A stretch of 64,000 bases of DNA from Anaeromyxobacteraceae bacterium (GTDB taxonomy: Bacteria > Myxococcota > Myxococcia > Myxococcales > Anaeromyxobacteraceae). Position numbers and translations under genes: made by a program. Position 1 is the first letter of the stretch. Every line of letters begins with the position of its first letter. Below the pieces are notes generated by a model. It did no database searches and was not told the origin of the DNA. It was given only the letters and a program-made list of their open reading frames with translations. Positions 49,161 through 64,000 of this stretch are shown here, piece by piece. The stretch covers positions 8,675 to 72,674 of the forward strand of contig DATJZG010000150.1 in assembly GCA_035499295.1 (NCBI GenBank). Reading direction: 5' to 3'.

Positions 49161-49453
49161 GGTCGGGAGGGAACCCGGCCGGGCGTCGGTGGGCGCACCG
49201 GGAGTGACGGAGGAGGCCCCGGCGGGCCGCCGGGACGCCCCGCGCCGGTCTTCCGTGGCAGGGGTGTCGCCGTCCTTCGCCACCGGTGAAGGGGGCGGCG
49301 CCCCGAGCCCCCCGTCGGAGCTTAAGCAAAGTTTGACTTACGCCGGCAGGGGACCCATCGGGACGGGGGAGCGCTCCTTGAAGCGCGCGGAATCCCTCGT
49401 TAGCGAAGCCCGAGGGAGGGCGGACGCGGAGAAGCATCACCGCAGGTGAAATC

Positions 49454-50536
49454 GTGAAGCAGTGGAAGGAGACCGCCGCCGTCCTCGGCAGGGTCGCCCG
49501 GCTCGCGGACGCCGGCCGGGAGGCGGCGGTCGCGACGGTGGTCCGGATCGTCGGCTCCGCGTACCGGCGCCCGGGGGCGAAGCTCCTCGTCGAGCCCGCG
49601 GGGGAGACGAGCGGCGGCGTGAGCGGCGGGTGCCTGGAGGCCGACGTCCGGGAGGTGGCGCGCGCGGTGGTGCGCGGCGCCAGGCCCAGGCTCCTTCACT
49701 ACGAGACCGCTTCGGCGGACGAGAACCCGTTCGGGCTGGGACTGGGCTGCGGCGGCTCGGTGGACGTCTTCGTGCAGCCCGCCACCACGCCGGAGGCGCT
49801 CGAGTCCGTGCGCCGGGTGCTCGAGCTCCTGCGCGGCGAGAAGCCCTTCGCCGTCTCCACCGTCCTCGAGGGAGAGCGCGCCGGGCGCTCGGTCGTCTTC
49901 GCGGGCGGAGCCATCGAGGGCAGCACCGGGTCAAAGGCCCTCGACTCCGCCCTCCGGGGGGAGGGCGAGGAGAGGCTCCGGGAGCGGCGCTCGGCGCTCC
50001 GACCCATGGAGGGGGTGGAGGTGTTCACCGACGTGTTCGACCCGCCGCCGCGGCTCGCCGTCTTCGGCGCCGGCGACGACGCCGTCCCCCTCGTCGGGTA
50101 CGCCGCCGACGTGGGGTTCCGCGTGACGGTGGTGGACCAAAGGCCCGCGCTCCTCACCGCCGAGAGGTTCCCGGGGGCGACGTCGCTCGCCCTGCGGCGC
50201 CCGGAGGAGGGGCTGGGCTCGCTGCCGCTCGGTCCGCGCGGCTTCGCGGTGGTGAAGAGCCACTCCCTGGCGGCGGACCGGGAGTGGCTCGCCGCCCTCG
50301 TCCGCTGCGATCTCCGCTACATCGGGCTCCTCGGCCCGCGCGAGCGGGTGGAGCGGGTGCTGCGCGAGTCGGGCGCGGCCGGCGACCCACGCATCTACGG
50401 CCCGGTGGGGCTCGACCTCGCCGCCGACGGGGCCGAGCAGGTGGCGGTGAGCGTGGTGGCGGAGCTCCTGGCGGTGCGCGCCGGGCGCGATCAGAGGCAC
50501 CTGCGCGCGCGGGAGGGGCCGATCCATGCCTCCTGA
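49454..50536 (+). CDS. XdhC/CoxF-family molybdoenzyme maturation protein
   Basis: ATVVRIVGSAYRRPGAKLLV...GGVSGGCLE, then the Rossmann-like LAVFGAGDDAVPL. GTG start. Confidence 0.8.
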   Translation: MKQWKETAAVLGRVARLADAGREAAVATVVRIVGSAYRRPGAKLLVEPAGETSGGVSGGCLEADVREVARAVVRGARPRLLHYETASADENPFGLGLGCGGSVDVFVQPATTPEALESVRRVLELLRGEKPFAVSTVLEGERAGRSVVFAGGAIEGSTGSKALDSALRGEGEERLRERRSALRPMEGVEVFTDVFDPPPRLAVFGAGDDAVPLVGYAADVGFRVTVVDQRPALLTAERFPGATSLALRRPEEGLGSLPLGPRGFAVVKSHSLAADREWLAALVRCDLRYIGLLGPRERVERVLRESGAAGDPRIYGPVGLDLAADGAEQVAVSVVAELLAVRAGRDQRHLRAREGPIHAS

Positions 50537-51137
50537 GCGGAAGGGACCGGTCGCCGCCGTGGTGCTCGCCGCGGGCTCCTCCGCCCGCATGGGGGAGAAC
50601 AAGATGCTGCTCTCGCTCGGGGGGGAGAGCGTCCTGCGGCGCGCCGTGCGCCGGGCCGGCGCCGCCGGCCTCGCGCCGGTAGTGGTGGTGCTCGGCCACG
50701 AGGCGGACCGGGCCCGGAGCGACCTCGGCGGGCTCCCGTGCCGACCCGTCGTGAACCCCCGCCACGAGCGGGGCATGAACGGCTCGATCGGGATCGGCTT
50801 CGCCGCCGTCCCCCCCGAGTCCGCGGCCGCGGTGATGCTGCTCGCGGACATGCCGCTCGTCACCCCCTCCATGATCGAGGCGGTGGTCGATCGCTACCGG
50901 AGCGGTACCGCTCCCGTCGTGGTCTCCCTGTTCGGCGAGGTGGTGGCGCCCCCCATGCTCTACGACCGCTCGCTCTTCCCCGAGCTCGCGCTCCTCGAGG
51001 GGGACGGCTGCGGGAAGCGGGTCTACAAGCGCCACCGCGACGAGGCCCTGACGGTGGCGCAACCGGCGAGCGCGCTCTGGGACCTCGACCGGCCGGAGGA
51101 CTACCGGCGCCTGCGGGCGCTCATCGAGGCGGGGTGA
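50526..51137 (+). CDS. mocA: MobA-like NTP transferase (molybdenum cofactor cytidylyltransferase MocA-like)
   Basis: AAVVLAAGSSARMG.NK.LL and LLADMPLV are present. It overlaps the upstream gene by 11 nt. Confidence 0.8.
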   Translation: MPPERKGPVAAVVLAAGSSARMGENKMLLSLGGESVLRRAVRRAGAAGLAPVVVVLGHEADRARSDLGGLPCRPVVNPRHERGMNGSIGIGFAAVPPESAAAVMLLADMPLVTPSMIEAVVDRYRSGTAPVVVSLFGEVVAPPMLYDRSLFPELALLEGDGCGKRVYKRHRDEALTVAQPASALWDLDRPEDYRRLRALIEAG

Positions 51138-51141
51138 CGAG

Positions 51142-52131
51142 ATGGACCGGACCGAGCTCCTCCAGATCGCAGCCGACCTCGCCGCCCGGGGAGAGCCGTT
51201 CGTGCGGGCGGTGGTGGTGCGGCGCGAGTCCTCGAGCTCGGCCCTGCCGGGCGACGCGGCGCTCGTCACCGCCGAGGGCGAGTTCCACGGCTGGCTGGGC
51301 GGCAGCTGCACCCGGCCCACCGTGATCCGGGAGGCGCGGGAGGTGCTCGCGGACGGGAAGCCCCGGCTCCTCTCCCTCACCCCCGACCCGGACGCGGAGG
51401 CGCGCCCCGGCGTCCTCGCCCGGCCCATGGCCTGCCACAGCGGGGGGACGGTCGACATCTTCCTCGAGCCGGTGCTGCCGGCGCCGCGCCTGGTGGTGTT
51501 CGGGCAGGCGCCGGTGTCGAAGGCGCTCTGCCGGCTGGGGAAGGCCATGGCCTACGCGGTGGACGTGGTCGAGCCCGGCGCCGACCCGGCCGCCTTCCCG
51601 GGGGCCGACCGGATCGTCCCCGCGCTTCCTCCCCCGGAGCCGGGCCGCCGGCGCCCCCGGGAGATCCTCGCGGTGGTGGCCACCATGGGGGAGCGCGACG
51701 AGGAGGCGCTCGCCGAGGCGCTCCCGCACGCGCCCGTATACCTGGGGGTGATCGCGAGCCGGAAGCGCTTCGCCCAGATGAGGGAGGCGCTCGCCGCCCG
51801 CGGGCACCCGGCCGCGGCGCTCGCCCAGGTGAAGAACCCGGCCGGGCTGGAGATCGGGGCGCGCACGCCCGAGGAGATCGCGCTCAGCGTGCTCGCGGAG
51901 ATCGTGAAGGTGCGCCGCGCCGCCAAGGTCGCCGCCGGCGCCGCCGAGCGGCGCGCCGAGGAGTCGGCCATCGACCCGGTGTGCGGCATGACGGTGCCGG
52001 TGGCCGGGGCGAGGCACCGGGCCGAGCACCTGGGCCGGAGCTACTTCTTCTGCCGCGCCGGGTGCCGGGAGCGCTTCCTCGCCGACCCGGAGAGGTACCT
52101 GGCCGGCGCCCACGCGGGGGCGGTCTCGTGA
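51142..52131 (+). CDS. XdhC/CoxF-like protein fused to a C-terminal YHS/TRASH metal-binding domain
   Basis: The XdhC N-domain has VRAVVVRRESSS..PGD.ALV...G...GWLGGSC, followed by the Rossmann part LVVFGQAPVS. The C-terminus, DPVCGMTV.......H.....SYFFC...C..RF..DP, is a YHS-type motif. Confidence 0.8.
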   Translation: MDRTELLQIAADLAARGEPFVRAVVVRRESSSSALPGDAALVTAEGEFHGWLGGSCTRPTVIREAREVLADGKPRLLSLTPDPDAEARPGVLARPMACHSGGTVDIFLEPVLPAPRLVVFGQAPVSKALCRLGKAMAYAVDVVEPGADPAAFPGADRIVPALPPPEPGRRRPREILAVVATMGERDEEALAEALPHAPVYLGVIASRKRFAQMREALAARGHPAAALAQVKNPAGLEIGARTPEEIALSVLAEIVKVRRAAKVAAGAAERRAEESAIDPVCGMTVPVAGARHRAEHLGRSYFFCRAGCRERFLADPERYLAGAHAGAVS

Positions 52132-53012
52132 GCCCGGAGATCCGCGCGCTGGCGGAGTCGCTCGAGGGCGCCGGGTACGTGACCGACGCGCCCGTCGCCA
52201 CGGCGCTCTTCCTCGCCACCGCCCTCGCCAAGCCGCTCCTCATCGAGGGCGAGGCGGGCGTCGGCAAGACCGAGACCGCCAAGGCGCTCGCGCGCGTGCT
52301 CTCGACCGAGCTCATCCGCCTGCAGTGCTACGAGGGGCTCGACGCCGCCACCGCCCTCTACGAGTGGAACTACCCGCGCCAGCTCCTGCACGCGCGCATC
52401 TTCGAGGGGCGTGGCGAGGACCCGGCCGCCACCGAGGCGGCCATCTTCGGCCGGGAGTACCTCCTCGAGCGGCCGCTCCTGCGGGCCATCACCCGGGAGG
52501 ACCGCTCCCCGGTGCTGCTCGTGGACGAGATCGACCGCGCGGACGACGGCTTCGAGGCCTTCCTCCTCGAGCTCCTCTCCGACTTCCAGGTGACCATCCC
52601 GGAGCTCGGCACCATCCGGGCGCGCCACCTGCCCTTCGTGGTGCTCACCTCGAACCGCACCCGCGAGATCGGCGACGCCCTGCGGCGCCGCTGCCTCTAC
52701 CTGTACCTCGAGCACCCGGACCTGGAGAAGGAGGTCCGGATCATCCGGCGGCAGGTGCCGGAGGCGAGCGCCGAGCTCGCCTCCGAGATCGGCGCCTTCA
52801 TGCAGGCGGCCCGGCGGCGGCGCCTCTCGAAGCTGCCGGGGGTGGCGGAGACCATCGACTGGGCCCGGGCGCTGGTGCGGCTCGGGGTGGCCCACCTCGA
52901 CCTCGACACGGCCCAAGCCACCCTGGGCGCCATCCTCAAGGACCCGCGCGATCTGAAGGAGCTCGCCCGGGGCGAGCTCGCGGCGATGCTCCCGGGCGAG
53001 GCCCTCCAGTGA
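52128..53012 (+). CDS. coxD: MoxR-type AAA+ ATPase (CoxD-like)
   Basis: The GTG at 52128 overlaps the upstream stop (GTGA). Walker A is IEGEAGVGKTE, Walker B is LLVDEIDRA, and TSNRTRE is present. Confidence 0.85.
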   Translation: MSPEIRALAESLEGAGYVTDAPVATALFLATALAKPLLIEGEAGVGKTETAKALARVLSTELIRLQCYEGLDAATALYEWNYPRQLLHARIFEGRGEDPAATEAAIFGREYLLERPLLRAITREDRSPVLLVDEIDRADDGFEAFLLELLSDFQVTIPELGTIRARHLPFVVLTSNRTREIGDALRRRCLYLYLEHPDLEKEVRIIRRQVPEASAELASEIGAFMQAARRRRLSKLPGVAETIDWARALVRLGVAHLDLDTAQATLGAILKDPRDLKELARGELAAMLPGEALQ

Positions 53013-54115
53013 GGCCCGACCTCTCCCTCCGGGTGGCGCGCCTGGGGCGGTTCCTCCGCCGGGAGGGGCTGCCGGTGGCGCTCTCCGACGAGATCGACGC
53101 CGGCCGCGCGCTCGCGCTCCTGCCGGGCTCCGACCGGGAGGAGCTCCGCCTCGTGCTGCGGAGCGCGCTCCGCATCCGCCGCGAGGACTGGGAGAGGTTC
53201 GACGCGCTCCTGGAGGCCTTCCTCTCCGAGCGGGCGCGCCGGAGGCGGCGCGTGGCCCGCCCGGCCGGCCGCGGCGCCGCGCTCGGCCGGGGGCGGGCGG
53301 ACACCGCTCCCGAGGGCGCGGGCGGGGCCGATCGCCCCGCCAGCGGTGCGCCCGCCTACAGCCCGGTCGCCCTCCTCGTGAAGGGCGCCCCGAGGGACTG
53401 CTCGGAGCGCGAGCTCGGCGAGATGGAGCGCGTCCTCTCCCGGCTCGCAAGGCGCCTGGCGCGTCGCCGCAGCCGCAGGCTCGTCCCCACCCGCGGCCCG
53501 GGGAGGCCCGACCCGAGGCGGAGCCTAAGGCACGCCCTCGCGAGCGGCGGCGAGCTCGTCGCCTTCGCGCGCCGGACCCGGGCGAGGGACGAACCCCGCC
53601 TCGTCTTCCTCTGCGACACGAGCGGCTCCATGGACGCCCACGCCCGCTTCCTCCTCGCCTTCGCCGTCGCCCTGCGCAGGGTGGCGAGGGCCACCGAGGT
53701 GTTCGCCTTCAACACCTCGCTCGTGCGCATCACCCCCTCGCTCGGCCGCGCTCCCCTCGCCGCCACGCTGGAGCGCGTCCGGGAGGCGGTGCCCGGCTGG
53801 TCGGGGGGGACCCGCATCGGGGCCTCGCTTTCGGAGTTCGTCGCCGGCCACCTCCAGGGCCGGGTGGGCGCCCGCACGGTGGTGGTGATCCTGAGCGACG
53901 GCCTCGATCGCGGCGATCCCCGGGCGCTCGCCTCGGCCATGTCCGCCATCCGCGAGCGCGCCGGCAAGGTGGTGTGGCTGAACCCGCTCCTCTCCGACCC
54001 CCGCTACCAGCCGACGGCGCGCGGGATGGCGGCGGCCCTCCCCTACGTCCACGACTTCCTCCCCGCCCACGACCTCGCCTCCCTCGAGAGGCTCCTGCCG
54101 AGGCTCGCCGCCTAG
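53009..54115 (+). CDS. coxE: VWA-domain protein (CoxE-like)
   Basis: The GTG at 53009 overlaps the coxD stop (GTGA). The MIDAS motif is LCDTSGSMD. Also present are GGTRIG, VVVILSDG and WLNPL. Confidence 0.8.
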   Translation: MRPDLSLRVARLGRFLRREGLPVALSDEIDAGRALALLPGSDREELRLVLRSALRIRREDWERFDALLEAFLSERARRRRRVARPAGRGAALGRGRADTAPEGAGGADRPASGAPAYSPVALLVKGAPRDCSERELGEMERVLSRLARRLARRRSRRLVPTRGPGRPDPRRSLRHALASGGELVAFARRTRARDEPRLVFLCDTSGSMDAHARFLLAFAVALRRVARATEVFAFNTSLVRITPSLGRAPLAATLERVREAVPGWSGGTRIGASLSEFVAGHLQGRVGARTVVVILSDGLDRGDPRALASAMSAIRERAGKVVWLNPLLSDPRYQPTARGMAAALPYVHDFLPAHDLASLERLLPRLAA

Positions 54116-54122
54116 GAAGACC

Positions 54123-54773
54123 ATGTCCCTCCGGATCGACAAGCGCTTCGTCGTCAAGGCTCCCGCCCCCGCGGTGTGGGCATTCCTCATCGACCCCTAC
54201 CGGGTGGCGCGGGCGCTCCCGGGGGCGGCGGTGACCGGGAAGGTGGACGAGCAGACCTACGAGGGCACCGAGGTGGTGAAGGTCGGCCCGGTCACCGCCA
54301 GCTACCGGGGGACGATGAAGTTCGAGCGGCTCGACCCGGCCAGCCGTTCCGCCCAGATCGTCGCCACCGGCCAGGACGTGAAGGGCAAGGGGGGCGCGAG
54401 CATGCGGCTCGAGAGCCGCGTGGTCGAGGTCGGGCCGGGGGAGACCGAGGTGGTGGCCTCCGCCGAGGTGAACGTGACGGGGGCGCTGGCGCAGTTCGGC
54501 CGCGGCCTCATCCAGGACGTCGGCGAGCAGATCTTCGAGAAGTTCACCCAGTCGGTCCGCGCCGAGCTCGAGGGAGCGGCGCGCCAGGACGGCGCCCGGG
54601 ACGCCGCGGCTCCGGCCGCCCCCGCGGCCCCCGTCCCGGTGGACGTGGTGGCGCTCGGGGCGGGCGCGGCGGCGCGCGCCGCCGGCCGGGCGGTGCGGCG
54701 CCCCGGCTTCTGGGCGGCCGTGGCGGTGGTGGTGCTGGTGGCGCTCTGGCTCTTGCTGCGGGCGCGACCGTGA
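54123..54773 (+). CDS. coxG: SRPBCC-fold CO dehydrogenase subunit G (CoxG-like) with a C-terminal membrane anchor
   Basis: It has a ..F.V.AP...VW.FL.DP..VA.C.PGA-type N-terminus, ASYRGTMKFE and VTGALAQFG.GLI. The hydrophobic tail is FWAAVAVVVLVALWLLL. Confidence 0.75.
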   Translation: MSLRIDKRFVVKAPAPAVWAFLIDPYRVARALPGAAVTGKVDEQTYEGTEVVKVGPVTASYRGTMKFERLDPASRSAQIVATGQDVKGKGGASMRLESRVVEVGPGETEVVASAEVNVTGALAQFGRGLIQDVGEQIFEKFTQSVRAELEGAARQDGARDAAAPAAPAAPVPVDVVALGAGAAARAAGRAVRRPGFWAAVAVVVLVALWLLLRARP

Positions 54774-54798
54774 CAGCGAGAAAGGGAAGGTGAACCCC

Positions 54799-55671
54799 AT
54801 GATCCCCGCTTCCTTCGACTACCAGGCGCCTTCGACCCTGGCCGACGCGCTCCGGCTCCTCGACCAGAACCGCGAGGGGGCGAAGGTGCTCTCCGGGGGG
54901 CAGAGCCTGCTCCCGCTCCTCAAGCTCCGGCTCGGCCAGGTGGAGATGCTCGTCGACATCGGGAAGGTCCCCGGCCTCGACTACATCCGCGAGGAGGGGG
55001 GCACGCTCCGGATCGGGGGGCGCACCCGCGAGGTCGAGCTGGAGCGCTCGGAGCTCTTGCGCTCGCGCTACCCGGCCCTCTCCGACACCGCCAGCGTGAT
55101 CGCCGACCCGCTGGTGAGGAACCTCGCCACCATCGGCGGGAACCTCGCCCACGGCGACCCGGCCAACGACCACCCGGCCACCATGATGGCGCTCGGGGCC
55201 CGGGTCGTCGCCACCGGCCCGAAGGGGCAGCGGGAGATCGCCATCGACGAATTCTTCCGGGGGCTCTTCTCGACCGCCCTCGAGCCCAGCGAGATCCTGA
55301 CCGAGATCCGGATCCCGGCACCGCCCCCCCGGAGCGGCGGAGCCTACGTGAAGCTCGAGCGCAAGGTGGGCGACTTCGCCACCGCCGCGGCCGCGGTGCA
55401 GCTCACCCTGGGCGCCGGGGGAGCGGTGGAGCGGGCCGGCATCGCCCTCACCAACGCCGGCCCCACCCCGGTGCGGGCGCGCGAGGCGGAGAAGTACCTC
55501 GTCGGGAAGAAGCTCGACGAGAAGACCCTCGCCGAGGCCGCGCGGCTCGCGGCCTCGGCGGCGAGGCCGAGCGCCGATCGCCGGGGCTCTGTCGAGTACA
55601 AGCGCGAGATGGCCCGGGTCCTCGCGGCCCGCGCCCTCGAGAAGGCCGCCCGCCGGGCGGAGGGACGGTAG
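54799..55671 (+). CDS. coxM: CO dehydrogenase / xanthine dehydrogenase-family FAD-binding medium subunit
   Basis: [16 protein letters not shown]......K.L.GGQSL.P.LK.R and [17 protein letters not shown] are present. The GTG at 54790 is an alternative start. Confidence 0.85.
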
Positions 55672-55673
55672 CC

Positions 55674-56144
55674 ATGGCCCAGCACCAGATCCGCGTCACC
55701 GTGAACGGCTCCCCGCACGAGGCCCGGGTGGAGAGCCGCCTGCTGCTCGTCCACCTCTTGCGCGAGGTCCTCCGCCTCACCGGCACCCACATCGGCTGCG
55801 ACACCACCCACTGCGGCGCCTGCACCGTGCTGCTCGACGGCGAGCCGGTGAAGAGCTGCACCGTCCTGGCGGTGCAGGCCGACGGGCGGGAGGTCACGAC
55901 CGTCGAGGGCCTGGAGAAGGACGGGAAGCTCCACCCCGTGCAGGAGGGCTTCTGGCAGATGCACGGCCTGCAGTGCGGCTACTGCACGCCGGGGATGATG
56001 ATGACGAGCTACGCGCTGCTTCAGCGGAACCGCAACCCGACCGAGGAGCAGATCCGCGAGGCCATCTCCGGGAACCTGTGCCGCTGCACCGGCTACGTGA
56101 ACATCGTGAAGTCCGTGCAGTACGCGGCCGAGAAGCTGCGCTAG
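55674..56144 (+). CDS. coxS: CO dehydrogenase-family [2Fe-2S] small subunit
   Basis: [15 protein letters not shown] and QCGYCTPGM...C.....GNLCRCTGY are present. Confidence 0.9.
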
Positions 56145-56153
56145 GAGGCGACC

Positions 56154-58520
<2,367 letters not shown>

Positions 58521-58529
58521 CCTCCGGGG

Positions 58530-58952
58530 CTACCCCTTCTTCCCGCCCTGGATGACGCCGAAGCGCGGCCGCTTGCGCTCCGGCGGGCGGAGCTCGCCCG
58601 CCACCACCGACGGCCAGGGGAAGGCGCAGTCGACCCGCGTGCCGCGGAAGGTGAGGTTGCAGCGGATGCCCCACTCGTCGAGCGAGAGGTGCGGCGTGTC
58701 GCGCCCGGCGACGAGGTTGAGCCGGACGAGCTCCTCCCCGCGCAGGAACTCGGGGAGCTCCACCCCCGGCACGGCCGGCGCGACCAGCACCCACTCGACG
58801 GCGGAGGCCTTGCGGCAGGCGTCGAGCATCTCCGGGTGGCGCCCCTCGAGCGCGAGCGCGTGGAGGGCCTCGCCGCCCCAGCGCGGGCACTCGGGGGTGC
58901 AGGCCTCCTCGGGGGGATGGGCGTGGGGGGCGTCCACGGCCGCCTTGTACAA
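58530..58952 (-). CDS. SspB-like (ClpXP adaptor family) protein
   Basis: VELPEFLRGEELVRLNLVAGRDTPHLSLDEWGIRCNLTFRGTRVDCAFPWPSVVA parallels the E. coli SspB core (VQVP.EY..DG.IVLNIS..AV..L.L....V.F.ARF.G....V.VP..AV.A). The basic C-terminal tail RPRFGVIQGGKKG resembles a ClpX-binding tail. It starts 48 nt after the TIR gene stop. Confidence 0.5.
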   Translation of the reverse strand: MYKAAVDAPHAHPPEEACTPECPRWGGEALHALALEGRHPEMLDACRKASAVEWVLVAPAVPGVELPEFLRGEELVRLNLVAGRDTPHLSLDEWGIRCNLTFRGTRVDCAFPWPSVVAGELRPPERKRPRFGVIQGGKKG

Positions 58953-58999
58953 CGAAAGCGCCTCCCCGGGCAGCGGGGGAGGGCGGCGGCCGAGGGCGG

Positions 59000-60355
59000 T
59001 TACTCGGGGGCGAGGACGAGCTGGGTCTGCGCCTTGAAGGTGGGCTCGTGCTTAGAGTTGTCCGACCCGCCGGCGCGCCCGAACTCGAGGTCGAGGGTGA
59101 CGCTCGGCGGCGGCTTCGAGAGCGCCAGGGTGCCGGAGATGCGGACGTAGGCCATGCCGTCCCCGGCCTGGGCGCTGCGCACCCCCTCGAAGAAGACCTG
59201 GTCGGCGTCGCGCACGGCGCGCACCGTCATGGGGAAGAAGCCGGGGGCCTGGTTCGCCGGGGCGAAGGTGAGGTGCGCGCCGTCGAGGACCCAGCGGGCG
59301 CTTCCCACGAGCTCGCGCCCCTTCTCCTTGGCGTCGGGGTTGCCGAGGTACTGCTGGAAGGAGACGACGCTCCGGGTGGCAAAGCTGGCGCGCTCGGGGC
59401 CCGCCTTCTGGGCCGGCTCGGGGGCGACCGCCCCCGAGGCCGCGACGGCGCTCGCGGACGGCGAGTCCCGGGCGGTCGACGGGGGCGCCGCCGGGGAGGG
59501 CCGCTCGGCCCTCCGGGCGGGGCTCTTCGCGACCGCGACCGCGGCCGGGGGAGGGGCGGGAGGGGCGGCCGAGAGCGCCTTCTGCGGGGGCGCCGCGGGC
59601 GCCGGGCCGGCGCGCGGGGGAGGGGAGGCCGGCGGCGCCGCCGGCGGCGGTCGCTCCGGGGGCGCCGCCGCGGCGGCCCCGGCCTCGCCGCCCGCGTGCG
59701 AGGCCGGATGGCCCTCGCCGCTGCGCGTCGCGCTCGGGCGCCGCAGGAGGGCGAAGGTCGCCCCAGCGACGGCGAGGAGGAGCGCCGCGAGGAGGATCCC
59801 GCGGAGCCCCACCCGGCGCGCCGCCCCTCCCGGCAGGCGGCGCCGGAGCGTGTCGACGAGGAGCGAGACGTTGTAGTCCCAGTCCTGCTCGGTGAGCTGG
59901 AGGCACTGGCGGTGGAGGAGGCCCAGGAGCGCCGGCGGGAGGTCTTCCTCGGAGGGCAGGGTGGCCCCGCCCACCAGGACCGGGACGACGAGCACGTCCT
60001 GGCGCTTGAGCGCGGTCGCGATCTCGAGCGAGACCACGTCGCGAGGGTCCTTCAAGCGTCGGCGCCCGGAGGCGTCGGCGATGGTGGCCCAGTTCCTCCC
60101 GATGAGGACGAGCACCACCCGGCAGCTCCCCACCGTGCGCTCGATCTCCTCCATGTAGTTCACGCCCGGCTCGAGCCCCTTCACGTCCATGAAGACCTGG
60201 CGGGGAAAGGCCTGCTCGAGCGCGTAGAGGAGCGCCCGGGCCTGCCCGCCGCTGTCCTCGCGCCGGTAGTTGATGAAGACGGCGCGCCCGGAGCGCGAGC
60301 GGGCGCGCGAGGGCGCCGCCGCCGGCCGCGCCGCCTCCCCGGTGGGAGCGCTCAT
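59000..60355 (-). CDS. TIR-domain membrane protein: N-terminal TIR - single TM - Pro/Ala-rich linker - roughly 130-aa extracytoplasmic domain
   Basis: The ATG at 60355 overlaps the upstream stop (ATGA). The TIR_2-type pattern is RAVFINYRREDSGGQARALLYALE..FPRQVFMDV..LEPGVNYMEEIERTVGSCRVVLVLIG.NW...........DVVSLEIATAL....VLVVPVLV. The TM segment is GILLAALLLAVAGATFALL. A PA-rich tract follows (PPERPPPAAPPASPPP...) and then a beta-rich C-terminal domain. Confidence 0.8.
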   Translation of the reverse strand: MSAPTGEAARPAAAPSRARSRSGRAVFINYRREDSGGQARALLYALEQAFPRQVFMDVKGLEPGVNYMEEIERTVGSCRVVLVLIGRNWATIADASGRRRLKDPRDVVSLEIATALKRQDVLVVPVLVGGATLPSEEDLPPALLGLLHRQCLQLTEQDWDYNVSLLVDTLRRRLPGGAARRVGLRGILLAALLLAVAGATFALLRRPSATRSGEGHPASHAGGEAGAAAAAPPERPPPAAPPASPPPRAGPAPAAPPQKALSAAPPAPPPAAVAVAKSPARRAERPSPAAPPSTARDSPSASAVAASGAVAPEPAQKAGPERASFATRSVVSFQQYLGNPDAKEKGRELVGSARWVLDGAHLTFAPANQAPGFFPMTVRAVRDADQVFFEGVRSAQAGDGMAYVRISGTLALSKPPPSVTLDLEFGRAGGSDNSKHEPTFKAQTQLVLAPE

Positions 60356-60666
60356 CGCTCTCCGTCCTCCCCACCCGGACCGAGGATGCGGAACCCGAGC
60401 GCGCACAGGGCCTTCAGGCTCTCGAGGACGGTGGCCCGGTCGTACGCCTTCTCCTCCTCCGGGAGCTCTTCGTAGGGGACGAGGCTCGGGTGCAGCTTGC
60501 GCTCCTCGTCGCGGCGCGGGCCGAGGCGCCACCCCTCGGCGAGCCGGCCCCGGGCCCAGACCTCGTGGGCGTTGCGGGCGAGCTTCTCGCCCACCCGCGC
60601 CACCTCTTCCGGGAGCTTCACGGCCTTCGTGTCGATGGGGTTCGGGCGGTAAGGGGCGGCCGGCAT
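60352..60666 (-). CDS. Stand-alone ryanodine-receptor (RyR) repeat domain protein, 104 aa
   Basis: ATG at 60666 after AGGGAG. YRPNPIDTKAVKLPEEVARVGEKLARNAHEVWARGRLAEGWRLGPRRDEERKLHPSLVPYEELPEEEKAYDRATVLESLKALCALGFRI matches the RyR repeat pattern as I remember it (..P.P.D.s.v.Lp.....l...LAEN.HnvWA..R...GW.YG...D...k.hP.LVPy..L.e.EK.y.r......lk.L.alGy.i). Confidence 0.8.
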   Translation of the reverse strand: MPAAPYRPNPIDTKAVKLPEEVARVGEKLARNAHEVWARGRLAEGWRLGPRRDEERKLHPSLVPYEELPEEEKAYDRATVLESLKALCALGFRILGPGGEDGER

Positions 60667-60780
60667 GGATCGCTCCCTATTCTGATAGCGGGCGGCCCGC
60701 CGCCGGCAAGACCCGAGGCGCGGGACGCCCGGGCCCTGGCACTGCGCGGCAAGGGGAACCCATCTGGGCGCGCGCCGGCG

Positions 60781-60807
60781 TTGACGGATACACCCAGCGG
60801 ATATAAG
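60781..60807 (+). promoter_or_regulatory. sigma70-like promoter TTGACG-N15-TATAAG upstream of the OMP/SLATT pair
   Basis: Hexamers at 60781-60786 and 60802-60807. The spacer is short (15 nt, or 16 if the -35 is read as GTTGAC). The ATG at 60833 is preceded by GGGAGGGA. Confidence 0.35.
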
Positions 60808-60832
60808 GCAGACCTCTAACCCGGGAGGGACC

Positions 60833-61555
60833 ATGAGAAGGGTCGTCGCAGCGGTCGCGTTTCTCGGTGCGCTCGCCCCGGCCGTGCCCGCCGGGGCGCA
60901 GGAGGGCGTCCAGCCGTTCCTCACCCCGGCTCCGCCCGGGCCGCCCGAGAGCGGGGTCTCGATCGGGGTGAGCGTCGGCTACAGCGTGCCCATGGGGTCG
61001 GCCGTCGGGGCGCCCACCGGCGGCCTCGCCGCCACCTCGTTCACCGACATCTACAGCGGCGCGGTCCCCCTGCAGCTCGACCTGGGCTGGCGCTTCGGCC
61101 CCAGCCTCTACCTCGGGGCCTACTTCGAGTACGCGTTCGCGTTCGTCGCCGCCGCGCAGAACTGCAACAACGGCACGACCTGCTCGGGCGGCGACATGCA
61201 CTTCGGCATCGACTTCGTCTACACCTTCATCCCCCGGGCGGTGTTCGCGCCCTACGTGGGCTTCGGGGTGGGGTACGAGATCGCCACCCTGAGCGCGAGC
61301 AACTCGGGCCAGTCCATCAGCGCGACCTACGACGGCTTCGAGTTCGCCCGCTTCATCGTCGGGGGGGACTTCCGCGTCGGCAGCGCCTTCCGGGTGGGCC
61401 CCTTCCTCAACTTCTCGCTCGGCCAGTTCACCAACATGAGCACGCCCTTCAACTCGAACGGCGCGCTCGCCGGCACCAACCAGTCGGTCAGCATCGCCAA
61501 CAAGGCCTTGCACGAATGGCTGCAGTTCGGGATCAAGGGGACGGTCGACCTCTGA
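60833..61555 (+). CDS. Small beta-barrel outer-membrane protein
   Basis: Signal peptide is MRRVVAAVAFLGALAPAVPAGAQ. The sequence has alternating-hydrophobic strands (LQLDLGWRF, LYLGAYFEYAF, HFGIDFVYTF, APYVGFGVGYE, WLQFGIKGTVDL). Confidence 0.65.
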   Translation: MRRVVAAVAFLGALAPAVPAGAQEGVQPFLTPAPPGPPESGVSIGVSVGYSVPMGSAVGAPTGGLAATSFTDIYSGAVPLQLDLGWRFGPSLYLGAYFEYAFAFVAAAQNCNNGTTCSGGDMHFGIDFVYTFIPRAVFAPYVGFGVGYEIATLSASNSGQSISATYDGFEFARFIVGGDFRVGSAFRVGPFLNFSLGQFTNMSTPFNSNGALAGTNQSVSIANKALHEWLQFGIKGTVDL

Positions 61556-62472
61556 TCGAGGGGGAGCGCTCCCGGCCCGCTTCGTTCGTCGACTACCCCG
61601 GCGTCTACCGGGCCGCGGACGCCGCCGCCGTCGCCGTCCGCCGGCAGCACTTCGCCGCCGAGGCGGTGCAGCTGCTCCTCAACCCGGTGGCCGCCGGGCT
61701 GGTGCTCCTCTCGGCCACCGCGCTCCTGCGCCTCTCCTACGCGGTCCTCACCGCGGTCTCCACCACCATGCTCGTCATCGTGCTCTGGTTCGTGCGCGCG
61801 GCGCGCTGGCAGAAGCTCTGGTACGAGTGCCGCAGCGCCGCCGAGGACGTGAAGCGGCTCACCTGGCGCTACATGATGGCGCTCGAGCCCTTCCCCCCGG
61901 GCATGCTCACCCCCGACGCTCCCTTCGTGAAGGCCCTCGACGCGGTCCTGCGCGCCCACCCCGAGATCCGGGAGATGCTGGGCCAGCGCGCCGACTCGCT
62001 CACGCCGCCGGTGACCGCCGGGATGCGGCGGGTGCGAAAGGGCTCCTTCGAGGAGCGGGCCGACTTCTACCTCGAGGCGCGGGTGGAGCCGGAGCTCGCC
62101 TGGTACGCCGCCAAGGCCCGCCGCCACGCCGCCCTCGACCGGCGCTGGTTCGCCGGCCTGGTCACGGTGCAGGTGGCGGCGGTGCTCTCGGCCATCTGGC
62201 TGGCGGTGCGGATCGGGGCGAACCCGGGGCCCGCCACCGCCGCCGAGAGCGCCGTGCCGCTCCTCGCCGCGCTCGGCTCGGCGGTGATGGGCTGGCAGCG
62301 CTCCAAGCGCTTCGCCGACCTGTCGGGGGCCTACGCCGGCACGGCGCACGCGCTCGCCGGGCTCGTGTCCGCCCGCCCTCCGGTCTCCGACGAGGAGGCG
62401 CAGCGGGAGTGGATCGAGGCGGTGGAGGCGGCGCTCGCGAGCGAGCACGAGGCCTGGCGCCTCATGATGTGA
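61516..62472 (+). CDS. Two-module SLATT/DUF4231-like membrane protein
   Basis: The only ATG in frame is at 61516 and overlaps the OMP gene by 40 nt. Module 1 is A.R.QHFAAEAVQLLLN - 2 TM - RWQKLWYECRSAAEDVKRLTWRYMM. Module 2 is FYLEARVEPELAWYAAKARRHAALDRRW - 2 TM - SKRFADLSGAYAGTAHALAGL. Both match my recollection of the DUF4231/SLATT pattern (Y....i..Q..WY..ka......). Confidence 0.55.
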   Translation: MAAVRDQGDGRPLIEGERSRPASFVDYPGVYRAADAAAVAVRRQHFAAEAVQLLLNPVAAGLVLLSATALLRLSYAVLTAVSTTMLVIVLWFVRAARWQKLWYECRSAAEDVKRLTWRYMMALEPFPPGMLTPDAPFVKALDAVLRAHPEIREMLGQRADSLTPPVTAGMRRVRKGSFEERADFYLEARVEPELAWYAAKARRHAALDRRWFAGLVTVQVAAVLSAIWLAVRIGANPGPATAAESAVPLLAALGSAVMGWQRSKRFADLSGAYAGTAHALAGLVSARPPVSDEEAQREWIEAVEAALASEHEAWRLMM

Positions 62473-62538: not shown

Positions 62539-64000
62539 ATGAGGGCTCAAAGGCGCGCGGGTCTGACGCTCTTCGCGGCCTGCGCCGCCCTCGCGGCCTG
62601 CGGGGGGTCGGGCTCCTCGGCGGCCGAGAAGGTCTACCGCGACCCCTCCCAGCCCCTGGAGAGCCGGGTGGAGGCACTCCTCTCGGTGATGTCGCTCGAG
62701 GAGAAGGTGGAGCAGATGTACGGCACGCCGCCGAACGACGGCTCCGGCCTCTCCGCCACCGCGCCGAACGCGCGCCTCGGCATCCCCGGCTTCCGCATGG
62801 TGGACGGCATGCGCGGGGTGGGCGCCGCCACCGGGAACGCCACCACCTTCCCGGTGGGCTCGGCCCGCGGGGCCACCTTCGACCCGGCGCTCGAGGGGCA
62901 GGTGGCCGCGGCCATCGGGGCCGAGGCCCGCTCCCGGGGCGCGAACGTGCTCCTCGCCCCCACCATCAACCTCCTGCGCCACCCCCGCTGGGGCAGGGCG
63001 CAGGAGACCTACGGGGAGGACACCTTCCACGTGGGCGCCATGGCGGCGGCCTTCGTCGCCGGCGCCCAAGAGCAGGTGATCACGGCCACCAAGCACTTCG
63101 CCCTCTACAGCATCGAGGACACCCGGCTCACGGTCAACGTGCAGGCGGACGACCGGACCGTGCGCGAGGTCTACCTCCCTCACTTCGAGCGGGCCGTCCG
63201 GGCCGGGACCGGCGCCGTCATGTCGGCCTACAACCGGGTGAACGGCGCCTACTGCTCCGAGAACCGGCCGCTCCTCGGGGAGATCCTGGACGGCGACTGG
63301 GGGTTCGACGGGTTCGTGGTGAGCGACTGGACCTTCGGGACGAGGAGCACGGTGCCGGCCGCCGAGGCCGGACTAGACGTGGAGATGCCGGCGGCCCACT
63401 ACTACGGCCTGCCGCTCCTCCAGGCGGTGGTGGGGGGCGCGCTGCCGCTCTCCGACGTGGACGACGCGGTGCGGCGCGTGCTGCGCGCCAAGCTCCGCTT
63501 CGGGATCTTCGACGGCAGGCCGGCGCTCGACCCGGCTTTGGAGATCGAGAGCGCCGCGCACACCGCGCTCGCGCGGCAGGTGGAGAGGGAGGCCATCGTG
63601 CTCCTCCAAAACGAGGGAGCGGCGCTCCCCATCGACCGGGCGGCGACGCGGCAGATCGCGGTGGTGGGCGCGCTCGCCGCCACCGCCAACACCGGCGACA
63701 CCGGGAGCAGCTCCACCCGCTCCTCCTACGTGGTGACCCCGCTCGCCGGCATCCAGGCGCTGGCGGGCCCGTCCACCACCGTCGTCGACCTCTCCCGCGA
63801 CGTCCTCGCCCCGGCCGACGAGGCCGCGGTGGCGGCCTCCGACGTGGCGGTGGTGGTGGTGGGGCTCACCTCCGCCGACGAGGGCGAGGCCGGGCTCGGC
63901 GCCGGGGACCGCAAGAGCCTCGACCTCTCGCCCGCGCACCTGGCGCTCGTCGCCGACGTGGCGAGCCACAACCCCCGGACGGTGGTGGTGCTGGAGGGGA
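62539..64000 (+). CDS. Glycoside hydrolase family 3 (beta-glucosidase-like) lipoprotein; 3' end lies outside the window
   Basis: My own translation gives the lipobox LAAC|GG, then LSVMSLEEKVEQM, FP...A.GATFD, LAPTINLLRHPRWGR.QETYGED, KHFA and GFVVSDW (nucleophile Asp motif). There is no stop in the window, so it is absent from the ORF track. Confidence 0.85.
   Translation, partial: MRAQRRAGLTLFAACAALAACGGSGSSAAEKVYRDPSQPLESRVEALLSVMSLEEKVEQMYGTPPNDGSGLSATAPNARLGIPGFRMVDGMRGVGAATGNATTFPVGSARGATFDPALEGQVAAAIGAEARSRGANVLLAPTINLLRHPRWGRAQETYGEDTFHVGAMAAAFVAGAQEQVITATKHFALYSIEDTRLTVNVQADDRTVREVYLPHFERAVRAGTGAVMSAYNRVNGAYCSENRPLLGEILDGDWGFDGFVVSDWTFGTRSTVPAAEAGLDVEMPAAHYYGLPLLQAVVGGALPLSDVDDAVRRVLRAKLRFGIFDGRPALDPALEIESAAHTALARQVEREAIVLLQNEGAALPIDRAATRQIAVVGALAATANTGDTGSSSTRSSYVVTPLAGIQALAGPSTTVVDLSRDVLAPADEAAVAASDVAVVVVGLTSADEGEAGLGAGDRKSLDLSPAHLALVADVASHNPRTVVVLEG

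Follow-up and report, generated by a model that had tools for sequence, protein, structure and literature searches.

A single RyR repeat in a TIR-SLATT cassette of Anaeromyxobacteraceae, a candidate receptor for a TIR-derived nucleotide

Introduction

What could a single ryanodine receptor (RyR) repeat, a module that animal ryanodine receptors carry in tandem, be doing in a bacterium beside the gene of a TIR protein? The question is raised by a 104-amino-acid (aa) protein encoded in a stretch of 64,000 nucleotides (nt) from an Anaeromyxobacteraceae bacterium (assembly GCA_035499295.1, contig DATJZG010000150.1), referred to below in its whole length as the window. A first-pass annotation of this DNA had proposed that the repeat binds or buffers a TIR-derived nucleotide, or regulates TIR assembly. 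The reading that we favour, with middling confidence, is that the RyR protein serves as the soluble nucleotide-receptor subunit for a SLATT effector in a Thoeris-like, membrane-associated TIR cassette. This receptor reading derives from the tight, usually overlapping pairs in which a RyR gene precedes a SLATT gene, and from fusions of RyR repeats to SLATT, patatin and cyclase domains. Four features are inferred for the protein and its cassette: that it binds a ligand, which ligand this is, that its control of SLATT is activating, and that the cassette acts against phages.

The RyR-repeat protein and its TIR partner

The two coupled genes and the parts of the TIR protein are located as follows.

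60352-60666, minus strand: gene of the stand-alone RyR-repeat protein, 104 aa, ATG to TGA, stop codon included
60352-60355, minus strand: four nt, ATGA, shared by the stop codon of RyR (TGA) and the start codon of TIR (ATG), read from the sequence
59000-60355, minus strand: gene of the membrane-anchored TIR protein, 451 aa, with an N-terminal TIR_2 domain (Pfam E=2.6e-10)
aa ~26-173 of the TIR protein, minus strand: cytoplasmic TIR domain, placed by Pfam, structural model and hydropathy
60023-60025, minus strand: catalytic-type glutamate E111 of the TIR domain, aligned with the catalytic glutamate
59744-59803, minus strand: single transmembrane helix of the TIR protein (aa ~185-204), placed by hydropathy
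59003-59389, minus strand: C-terminal extracytoplasmic domain of the TIR protein, ~130 aa, of unassigned fold
58961-58982, minus strand: terminator-like GC-rich hairpin with a T-rich tail, just past the TIR stop codon

The similarity of the 104-aa protein to RyR repeats is far beyond chance. Its residues 6-94 cover positions 1-89 of the 91 in the Pfam RyR profile PF02026 (E=2.1e-33), with a score of 114.9 bits against a gathering cut-off of 27.4, which makes it a full-length member of the family. When the PDB was searched with phmmer, the best match aligned residues 4-94 with residues 860-950 of RyR2, whose repeat 1 is ~45% identical to the bacterial protein, and the other three RyR repeats of RyR1-3 also aligned end to end (full-sequence E=1e-62). 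A structural model generated with AlphaFold2 from an alignment of 23 homologues has a mean predicted local distance difference test (pLDDT) score of 90.9, and its top structural match in Foldseek is the stand-alone RyR-domain protein of Bacteroides thetaiotaomicron (3NRT; 52% identity, TM-score 0.93, root-mean-square deviation 0.9 Å). The Repeat12 domains of RyR1-3 come next (query-normalised TM-score 0.64-0.78), including RyR3 complexes with dantrolene or azumolene plus AMP-PCP (9L90, 9LS7), so the protein is predicted to have the Repeat12-type fold of two long helices. Taken together, the profile, the RyR1-3 alignments and the 3NRT/Repeat12 fold match bear out the whole-length similarity that had first been noticed by eye. 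An identical protein is held at NCBI as 'RyR domain-containing protein [Anaeromyxobacteraceae bacterium]', from an Anaeromyxobacteraceae metagenome-assembled genome (MAG).

A Shine-Dalgarno-like GGGAG lies 8 nt upstream of the start of the RyR open reading frame (ORF), and the ATGA at its other end indicates, to judge from the sequence, that RyR and TIR are translationally coupled, as the first-pass annotation had held. The same 4-nt overlap is found at two related loci, L001 and L003 (loci and proteins of our survey are cited by L and P numbers). The hairpin downstream of the TIR gene probably marks the end of this RyR-TIR operon, but the evidence is weak: one such site was found, and 0.9 are expected by chance.

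The TIR partner is predicted to be anchored in the membrane by its single helix, which is joined by a Pro/Ala-rich linker to the C-terminal extracytoplasmic domain. This last domain has no Pfam match, and its homologues are nine fragmentary metagenome sequences. In the case of the TIR domain, the AlphaFold2 model (pLDDT 86.9) has as its closest fold the TIR domain of human SARM1, with a target-normalised TM-score of 0.81-0.84 at 23-24% identity, well ahead of AbTir, RUN1 and TLR-type TIRs. E111 and F27 are invariant in the 37 TIRs that we found at RyR loci. PADLOC returned a weak ThsB match for the TIR protein.

A divergent SLATT gene completes a four-gene cassette

Upstream of the RyR-TIR pair, a second operon is transcribed in the opposite direction.

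60667-60832, no strand: divergent intergenic region of 166 bp between the RyR-TIR and OMP-like/SLATT operons
60833-61555, plus strand: gene of a secreted protein resembling an outer-membrane beta-barrel (OMP-like), 240 aa, with a signal-peptide-like N-terminus recognized by eye
61516-62472, plus strand: gene of a double-SLATT membrane protein, 318 aa (SLATT_3 E=1.5e-25, SLATT_1 E=3.7e-16)

The SLATT gene, which the first-pass annotation had overlooked, lies 850 bp from the RyR gene on the opposite strand, and its product, which also has a DUF4231 match (Pfam, E=4.6e-7), is a predicted pore-forming effector. The OMP-like gene overlaps the SLATT start by 40 nt and is confined to three Anaeromyxobacter-type cassettes; the window protein has no Pfam match, and its L003 orthologue shows a weak one to PF13505 (OMP_b-brl). 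Promoters of both operons presumably lie in the intergenic region, where a promoter scan found no sigma-70 consensus, a result that is uninformative in an organism of 72% GC. The RyR, SLATT and OMP-like proteins had no PADLOC match.

The resulting cassette, in which RyR-TIR diverges from OMP-like-SLATT, occurs in the same four-gene order in three Anaeromyxobacteraceae assemblies: the window, L001 (RyR 74% identical to that of the window, flanks partly syntenic with it) and L003 (RyR 67% identical, with unrelated flanks of multihaem cytochromes, TPR and peptidase M16 genes). The association of TIR and SLATT is thus kept in both relatives. As predicted from sequence, the cassette would combine three Thoeris-like parts, namely a TIR that makes a signal, a RyR protein with relatives that bind isomers of cyclic ADP-ribose (cADPR), and a SLATT membrane effector.

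Neighbours of RyR genes across bacteria

To place the cassette among its relatives, one genome per GTDB species was scanned with the alignment of 23 homologues, which recovered relatives in at least 565 species. The best 80 loci, with RyR proteins 52-68% identical to that of the window, were combined with earlier loci and the window itself into 84 non-redundant loci. These come from Acidobacteriota, Planctomycetota, Bacteroidales, Clostridia, Gemmatimonadota, Nitrospirota, cyanobacteria and others, and they sample the clade nearest to the window RyR protein rather than all RyR-domain proteins.

Clustering of all surrounding ORFs yielded two recurrent neighbour families, double-SLATT and TIR_2. 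A SLATT gene lies within 4 kb of RyR at 29 of the 84 loci (within 300 bp at 23) and a TIR_2 gene at 30 (within 300 bp at 20); both are present at 15 loci and at least one at 44, counts that are lower bounds because several of the loci with neither family are short contigs. Within the same loci, 33 TIR ORFs were found in 584 kb near RyR and 4 in 441 kb far from it (binomial p=2e-5), and the corresponding numbers for SLATT are 32 and 0 (p=1.5e-8). Neighbouring TIRs were searched with a profile built from Pfam-verified domain segments, and all 37 were confirmed as Pfam TIR_2. Comparative genomics, one of the checks set by the first-pass annotation, therefore shows RyR genes to be enriched beside TIR genes, and at one locus the two domains are fused.

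The neighbouring SLATT proteins are double-SLATT proteins of ~350-430 aa, whose genes nearly always follow RyR directly and in the same orientation, at distances of -16 to +163 nt; Pfam matches among the 32 SLATT-like ORFs are to SLATT_1 (15), DUF4231 (14) and SLATT_3 (7). Four gene orders recur: RyR-SLATT-TIR; TIR-RyR-SLATT; TIR divergent from RyR-SLATT; and the window type, SLATT divergent from RyR-TIR. The adjacency of RyR and SLATT is therefore the constant and the position of TIR the variable, and across bacteria it is SLATT, not TIR, that is the tightest partner of the RyR gene.

Many TIRs at RyR loci consist of an N-terminal cytoplasmic TIR domain, a transmembrane helix and a variable extracytoplasmic domain. 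This layout is found in the window and at L012, L017, L018, L021, L025, L029, L040, L055, L057, L060, L061, L073, L074, L076, L083 and L087, and an FGE-sulfatase domain is present in four of the proteins. There are also TIR-NB-ARC-TPR, TIR-TPR and TIR-Sel1 proteins. The membrane-anchored forms have the inverted topology of a Toll-like receptor, unlike the cytosolic ThsB proteins, and their extracytoplasmic domains hint at envelope sensing in bacteria.

Several further neighbours were observed. The 113 flanking ORFs of the loci with RyR, TIR and SLATT genes gave scattered PADLOC matches, and their Pfam domains are mostly those of housekeeping genes, plus TPR-S, CHAT and caspase. Proteases of the CHAT (3) and caspase (2) types and DUF6982 proteins (3) recur in the flanks of TIR/SLATT-positive loci (alignment A5) and may supply further effectors to the same signalling network. 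At L004 (6001-6787), L008 (6001-6808), L015 and L016 (the last two in MAGs of Acidobacteriota), recX and RyR overlap at the stop codon of recX; between recX and alaS the RyR gene is accompanied by a small gene of 140-154 aa, which has a SLATT_1/DUF4231 match at L008, and no TIR is near. This site is a housekeeping-looking home of a RyR-SLATT pair. Meanwhile, TrkA_N proteins with an NAD-binding Rossmann domain adjoin RyR genes at L005-L007 (6413-8254), L017 (8312-9841), L029 (8297-10132) and L048 (8285-9193). Those of L005-L007 and L029 bear one or two C-terminal RyR repeats, which suggests that RyR repeats heterodimerise.

Fusions of RyR repeats to effector domains

A HMMER search of 1.84 billion representatives returned 7256 clusters with E<=1e-3, of which 1407 reach E<=1e-10. 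Of the 23 closest proteins that have one repeat and exceed 200 aa, nine are RyR-TPR-S proteins, five of them ending in a guanylate/adenylate cyclase domain; two are RyR-patatin phospholipases (P0306, P0314), one is a RyR-kinase, two are Pfam-supported RyR-SLATT proteins (P0297, P0346), and a further four join RyR to a multi-transmembrane region matching our custom SLATT profile. Examples of RyR-TPR-S-guanylate cyclase are L027, L062 and P0284, and RyR-TPR-S genes were noted at L027 (7950-10304), L062 (8001-10268) and L056 (7977-9110) and in P0284 and P0362. A direct RyR-TIR_2 fusion of 512 aa is encoded at L044, in Ruminococcaceae. With few exceptions, none of them with an identified effector or output partner, these fusions carry the RyR repeat at the N-terminus. 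The window SLATT protein is related to the SLATT part of these fusions at the profile level only, since a pairwise BLAST comparison with P0297 was not significant.

Signal-activated effectors of Thoeris, CBASS and type III CRISPR systems are built with an N-terminal sensor followed by an effector. In the SLOG-SIR2 protein ThsA, the Macro-transmembrane protein ThsC and the effector fusions of SAVED, CARF and STING domains, an N-terminal sensor of small molecules is joined or adjacent to a killing domain, for example a transmembrane pore or a patatin. RyR-SLATT and RyR-patatin proteins reproduce this sensor-effector layout, whereas in the window the candidate sensor and effector are separate polypeptides encoded on opposite strands. 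The RyR-SLATT, RyR-patatin and RyR-TPR-S-cyclase fusions thus favour a receptor role over that of a pure buffer. The RyR repeat is not known to have been described before as a sensor fold of signalling defence.

The predicted ligand pocket and the phage-encoded relatives

Four residues of the window protein, each verified at the codon level, are predicted to line a ligand pocket.

60565-60567, minus strand: H34
60556-60558, minus strand: W37
60490-60492, minus strand: H59
60439-60441, minus strand: D76

Phage proteins with RyR domains bind or hydrolyse 2'cADPR and 3'cADPR, and the key residues of one of them, RyDEP, are H75, W78, H100 and D117 (Lopez Rivera et al., 2026 preprint, PMC13232231). 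Six of eight further phage homologues bind the signals without cleaving them, and two are confirmed sponges with nM affinity (PMC13232231). The RyR Tad protein of a Pectobacterium phage, gp68, is a dimeric 3'cADPR sponge with a dissociation constant of 43 nM, which also binds 2'cADPR and canonical cADPR below 1 uM through the residues H129/W132, K147/H154 and K170/D171 (an independent 2026 preprint, 10.64898/2026.06.04.730250). Both are anti-Thoeris proteins, RyDEP being gp78 of mycobacteriophage DyoEdafos and RyR Tad coming from Pectobacterium phage CB1 (PMC13232231; 10.64898/2026.06.04.730250).

The spacing of H34, W37, H59 and D76 (3, 25, 17) equals that of H75/W78/H100/D117 in RyDEP and of H129/W132/H154/D171 in RyR Tad; the equivalence to RyDEP is based on this spacing and on alignment with other phage homologues rather than on RyDEP's own sequence. 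The four residues are invariant or at least 90% conserved among bacterial homologues (alignment A1) and aligned with the Pectobacterium, Ruegeria and Gordonia phage homologues (alignment A2), so that the ligand-binding or catalytic residues of the phage anti-Thoeris family appear to be conserved in the window protein. The Gordonia phage homologue matched PDB entry 35tm chain A, a 139-aa 'Ryanodine receptor Ryr domain-containing protein', which is probably the crystal structure of RyDEP.

The window protein shares with RyDEP and RyR Tad the PF02026 domain, the Repeat12-like helical fold and the four pocket residues, and all are small, expected to dimerise and tied to ADP-ribose (ADPR) signals made by TIRs. 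They differ in that the phage proteins sequester or hydrolyse the signal to the detriment of the host, whereas the window protein is chromosomal, shares an operon with TIR and is co-conserved with SLATT. It is devoid of the extra N-terminal segment or domain of the phage proteins, and it is nearer to animal RyR repeats (~45% identity) than to them (32-38%). The closest solved structure, the B. thetaiotaomicron protein (3NRT, 4N05, 6UAG, 6UAM, 6UG4), is likewise a single repeat of ~100 aa; the titles of its crystal entries speak of open and closed dimers, which mimic tandem Repeat12, and the entries record neither a function nor a ligand.

These relatives lend weight to another view of the cassette, in which the RyR dimer is a built-in buffer or off-switch for TIR product, basal or spent, which it would sequester or, acting as a glycosidase, linearise. 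The repeat would then set the threshold of SLATT activation, prevent autoimmunity and reset the system, as the host counterpart of phage RyDEP and RyR Tad and functionally akin to the ring nucleases of type III CRISPR. All characterized relatives are sponges or a glycosidase whose binding or catalytic residues are conserved in the window protein, the latter is a bare domain of ~100 aa with no output domain, and verified TIR+SLATT systems need no third protein. Moreover, RyR precedes and is translationally coupled to a potentially dangerous partner (TIR here, SLATT elsewhere), in the manner of an antitoxin or immunity gene. Nonetheless, the repeated fusion of an N-terminal RyR to SLATT, patatin, cyclase and kinase domains is a sensor-effector layout that makes little sense for a sponge, and RyR-effector genes occur without any TIR near; we regard the buffer as unlikely, if worth serious attention. 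What the first-pass annotation had proposed in general form, that RyR binds or buffers a TIR-derived nucleotide, gains from the binding of 2', 3' and canonical cADPR by phage proteins, from the conserved pocket and from the linkage to TIR, although pure buffering is less favoured than a receptor in view of the effector fusions. In that general form the idea is no longer new, since such binding has been demonstrated for the phage proteins. Its companion proposal, that RyR regulates TIR assembly, found no specific support.

Comparison with Thoeris systems and proposed mechanism

The nearest precedent for the cassette as a whole lies in Thoeris. Pairs of TIR and SLATT genes are anti-phage systems that signal by cADPR, and type VII Thoeris consists of a TIR and the SLATT effector ThsH, which responds to canonical cADPR (Yirmiya et al., 2025 preprint, 10.64898/2025.12.03.692087). 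Type VIII combines a TIR with a cADPR-dependent CMP-hydrolase-TPR effector, the TPR domain of which is proposed to perceive cADPR (10.64898/2025.12.03.692087). A TPR module is likewise present in the RyR-TPR-S fusions described above. RyR and PF02026 are absent from the text of that study and from the supplementary tables available to us, and in the non-subscription literature we found no description of RyR genes on the chromosome within TIR/SLATT operons. Two features appear to be undescribed so far: that a bacterial RyR clade is widespread, genetically linked to TIR and SLATT and joined to effectors in fusion proteins, and that Anaeromyxobacteraceae possess a four-gene, envelope-spanning cassette with a membrane-anchored SARM1-like TIR.

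Type VII Thoeris and the window cassette have in common a small size, a TIR with a catalytic glutamate (in the window a TIR_2 domain with E111 and a SARM1-like fold), a SLATT membrane protein, and the expected logic by which an NAD+-derived signal leads to membrane disruption. A type VII system is a two-gene operon with a cytosolic ThsB-type TIR, whereas the window has four genes in two divergent operons, with RyR between TIR and SLATT, and a membrane-anchored SARM1-like TIR_2. A RyR gene is added, and the double SLATT_3+SLATT_1 protein is encoded on the opposite strand behind an OMP-like gene.

Under the receptor reading, a triggered membrane-anchored SARM1-like TIR would turn NAD+ into an ADP-ribose-derived signal, and the trigger may act via the extracytoplasmic C-terminal domain. 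The signal would be a cADPR isomer, possibly canonical cADPR, as hinted by the SARM1-like fold of the TIR model and, by analogy, by the cADPR binding of RyR Tad. A RyR homodimer would then bind it in the pocket of H34, W37, H59 and D76 and control the divergently encoded double-SLATT effector of the inner membrane, whose opening could cause membrane collapse and abort the infection.

A number of observations weigh against this proposal. Every characterized relative with a RyR domain removes the signal, as a sponge or a glycosidase (PMC13232231; 10.64898/2026.06.04.730250), and it is by analogy with these phage proteins that the window protein and its chromosomal homologues are taken to bind nucleotides. 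Verified type VII systems work with TIR and SLATT alone, so SLATT may sense the signal itself. By sequence comparison the TIR of the window shows no relationship to the clusters of verified type VII TIRs: a phmmer search with the six verified type VII TIRs (Table S1) against all locus ORFs gave no match to it, the best matches among other locus ORFs reaching E ~0.007, and the signal is consequently not inferable from TIR homology. When the search is made from the TIR side, close homologues of the TIR-transmembrane protein (46-57% identity) are not beside RyR or SLATT, which makes the pairing a property of the RyR clade and not of the family of the window TIR. None of the RyR-patatin and RyR-SLATT examples that we looked up has a TIR near, so the natural ligand need not be TIR-made. 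In addition, about half of the neighbour SLATT assignments rest on the custom iterated profile alone, the window RyR gene is coupled to TIR and not to SLATT, and housekeeping genes make up most of the flanks of the surveyed loci, those in the window being metabolic, so that a defence island is not clearly indicated.

Animal ryanodine receptors and the wider meaning of the RyR-TIR link

The window repeat and animal Repeat12 align over the whole repeat, and the same pocket residues of RyR3 contact adenine nucleotides and dantrolene. In animals two such repeats stand in tandem within a Ca2+ channel of 5000 aa, whereas the window has one free repeat in a TIR/SLATT cassette. Direct binding of cADPR by animal Repeat12 is unproven, and the debate over whether cADPR acts directly on the receptor is decades old. 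SARM1 is an animal TIR that produces cADPR.

Another reading gives RyR a wider ligand range, as a general sensor of adenine nucleotides or NAD metabolites that is not dedicated to TIR and perhaps not immune. It would report ATP/ADP, NAD+ or free ADPR, a role that has been proposed for the Repeat12 site of animals, and tune SLATT or other outputs in stress, with TIR as one of several inputs. Animal Repeat12 binds ATP/ADP analogues (9L90, 9LS7; PMC12627627). The adjacency of stand-alone RyR genes to NAD-binding TrkA_N proteins with RyR repeats, the many RyR-SLATT and RyR-patatin genes that lie without TIR among housekeeping genes (recX-RyR-SLATT-alaS, for example) and the lack of a clear defence-island signal around the surveyed loci all point the same way. 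Against it stand the strong enrichment of TIR near RyR together with the existing RyR-TIR fusion, the phage versions selected specifically to defeat Thoeris, and the SLATT, patatin, TPR-S and CHAT/caspase partners typical of conflict systems, and we consider such a general sensor quite improbable.

A broader proposal gives the RyR repeat an ancient and dedicated role as the receptor of TIR-made canonical cADPR. A bacterial SARM1-like TIR would make cADPR, the free RyR would bind it, and a SLATT pore or patatin lipase would fire; the animal pathway from SARM1/CD38 through cADPR and the ryanodine receptor to Ca2+ would descend from this immune module, and phage RyDEP and RyR Tad would be stolen copies of the host receptor. 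We offer this lineage as speculation and regard it as rather unlikely.

Should the receptor reading be correct, the RyR repeat would add a receptor fold to bacterial TIR/Thoeris signalling, and at least one undescribed architecture, TIR + RyR + SLATT, would join it together with its RyR-SLATT, RyR-patatin and RyR-TPR-S-cyclase relatives. For the phage anti-Thoeris sponges and glycosidases, an origin by capture of a host receptor domain is suggested. With regard to the cADPR-ryanodine receptor question, the bacterial repeat offers a genetically simple setting for nucleotide binding and its consequence, to which the modelled resemblance of the partner TIR to SARM1 may be relevant.

Flanking genes and the origin of the locus

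The cassette is flanked in the window by the following genes.

58530-58952, minus strand: ORF of 140 aa downstream of TIR, with a basic C-terminal tail and no Pfam match; present in L001, absent from L003
~62600-64000, plus strand: lipoprotein-like gene, GH3 beta-glucosidase-like by eye, continuing past the end of the window
~49380-58520, plus strand: cox/xanthine-dehydrogenase-type operon with two XdhC-family genes (one with YHS), CoxG, a 2Fe-2S small subunit and a molybdopterin large subunit

These flanks bear on whether the RyR gene could belong to a prophage or mobile element as an anti-defence gene, encoding a sponge of the RyDEP type, and stand beside TIR by chance. The family is a known anti-Thoeris tool, and 252 phage records encode RyR-domain proteins. 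In the flanks of the cassette, formed by the cox operon and the GH3 gene, there are no phage or mobility genes, so the gene does not lie in a phage-encoded anti-defence or NAD-salvage locus; the gene overlaps that of the TIR protein, and across phyla it is conserved together with TIR and SLATT. Its product is 52-80% identical to chromosomal homologues and less than 60% to any phage match, most of these being partial at 32-48%, and it has no counterpart of the extra N-terminal segment of the phage proteins. Such an origin is scarcely credible, and on grounds of context and conservation we reject both it and chance adjacency.

The closest RyR protein recorded as that of a phage (MT836850.1, 1159-1443) has 54.7% identity near full length, where the other phage records listed give partial matches at 32-49%. 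It comes from an unannotated 8.5-kb 'Bacteriophage sp.' contig of human faeces, and may point to bacterial DNA wrongly assigned to a phage or to a capture of recent date. Owing to its absence from L003, the 140-aa ORF is not counted in the cassette and probably lies outside it. Part of the cox-type operon is syntenic with L001.

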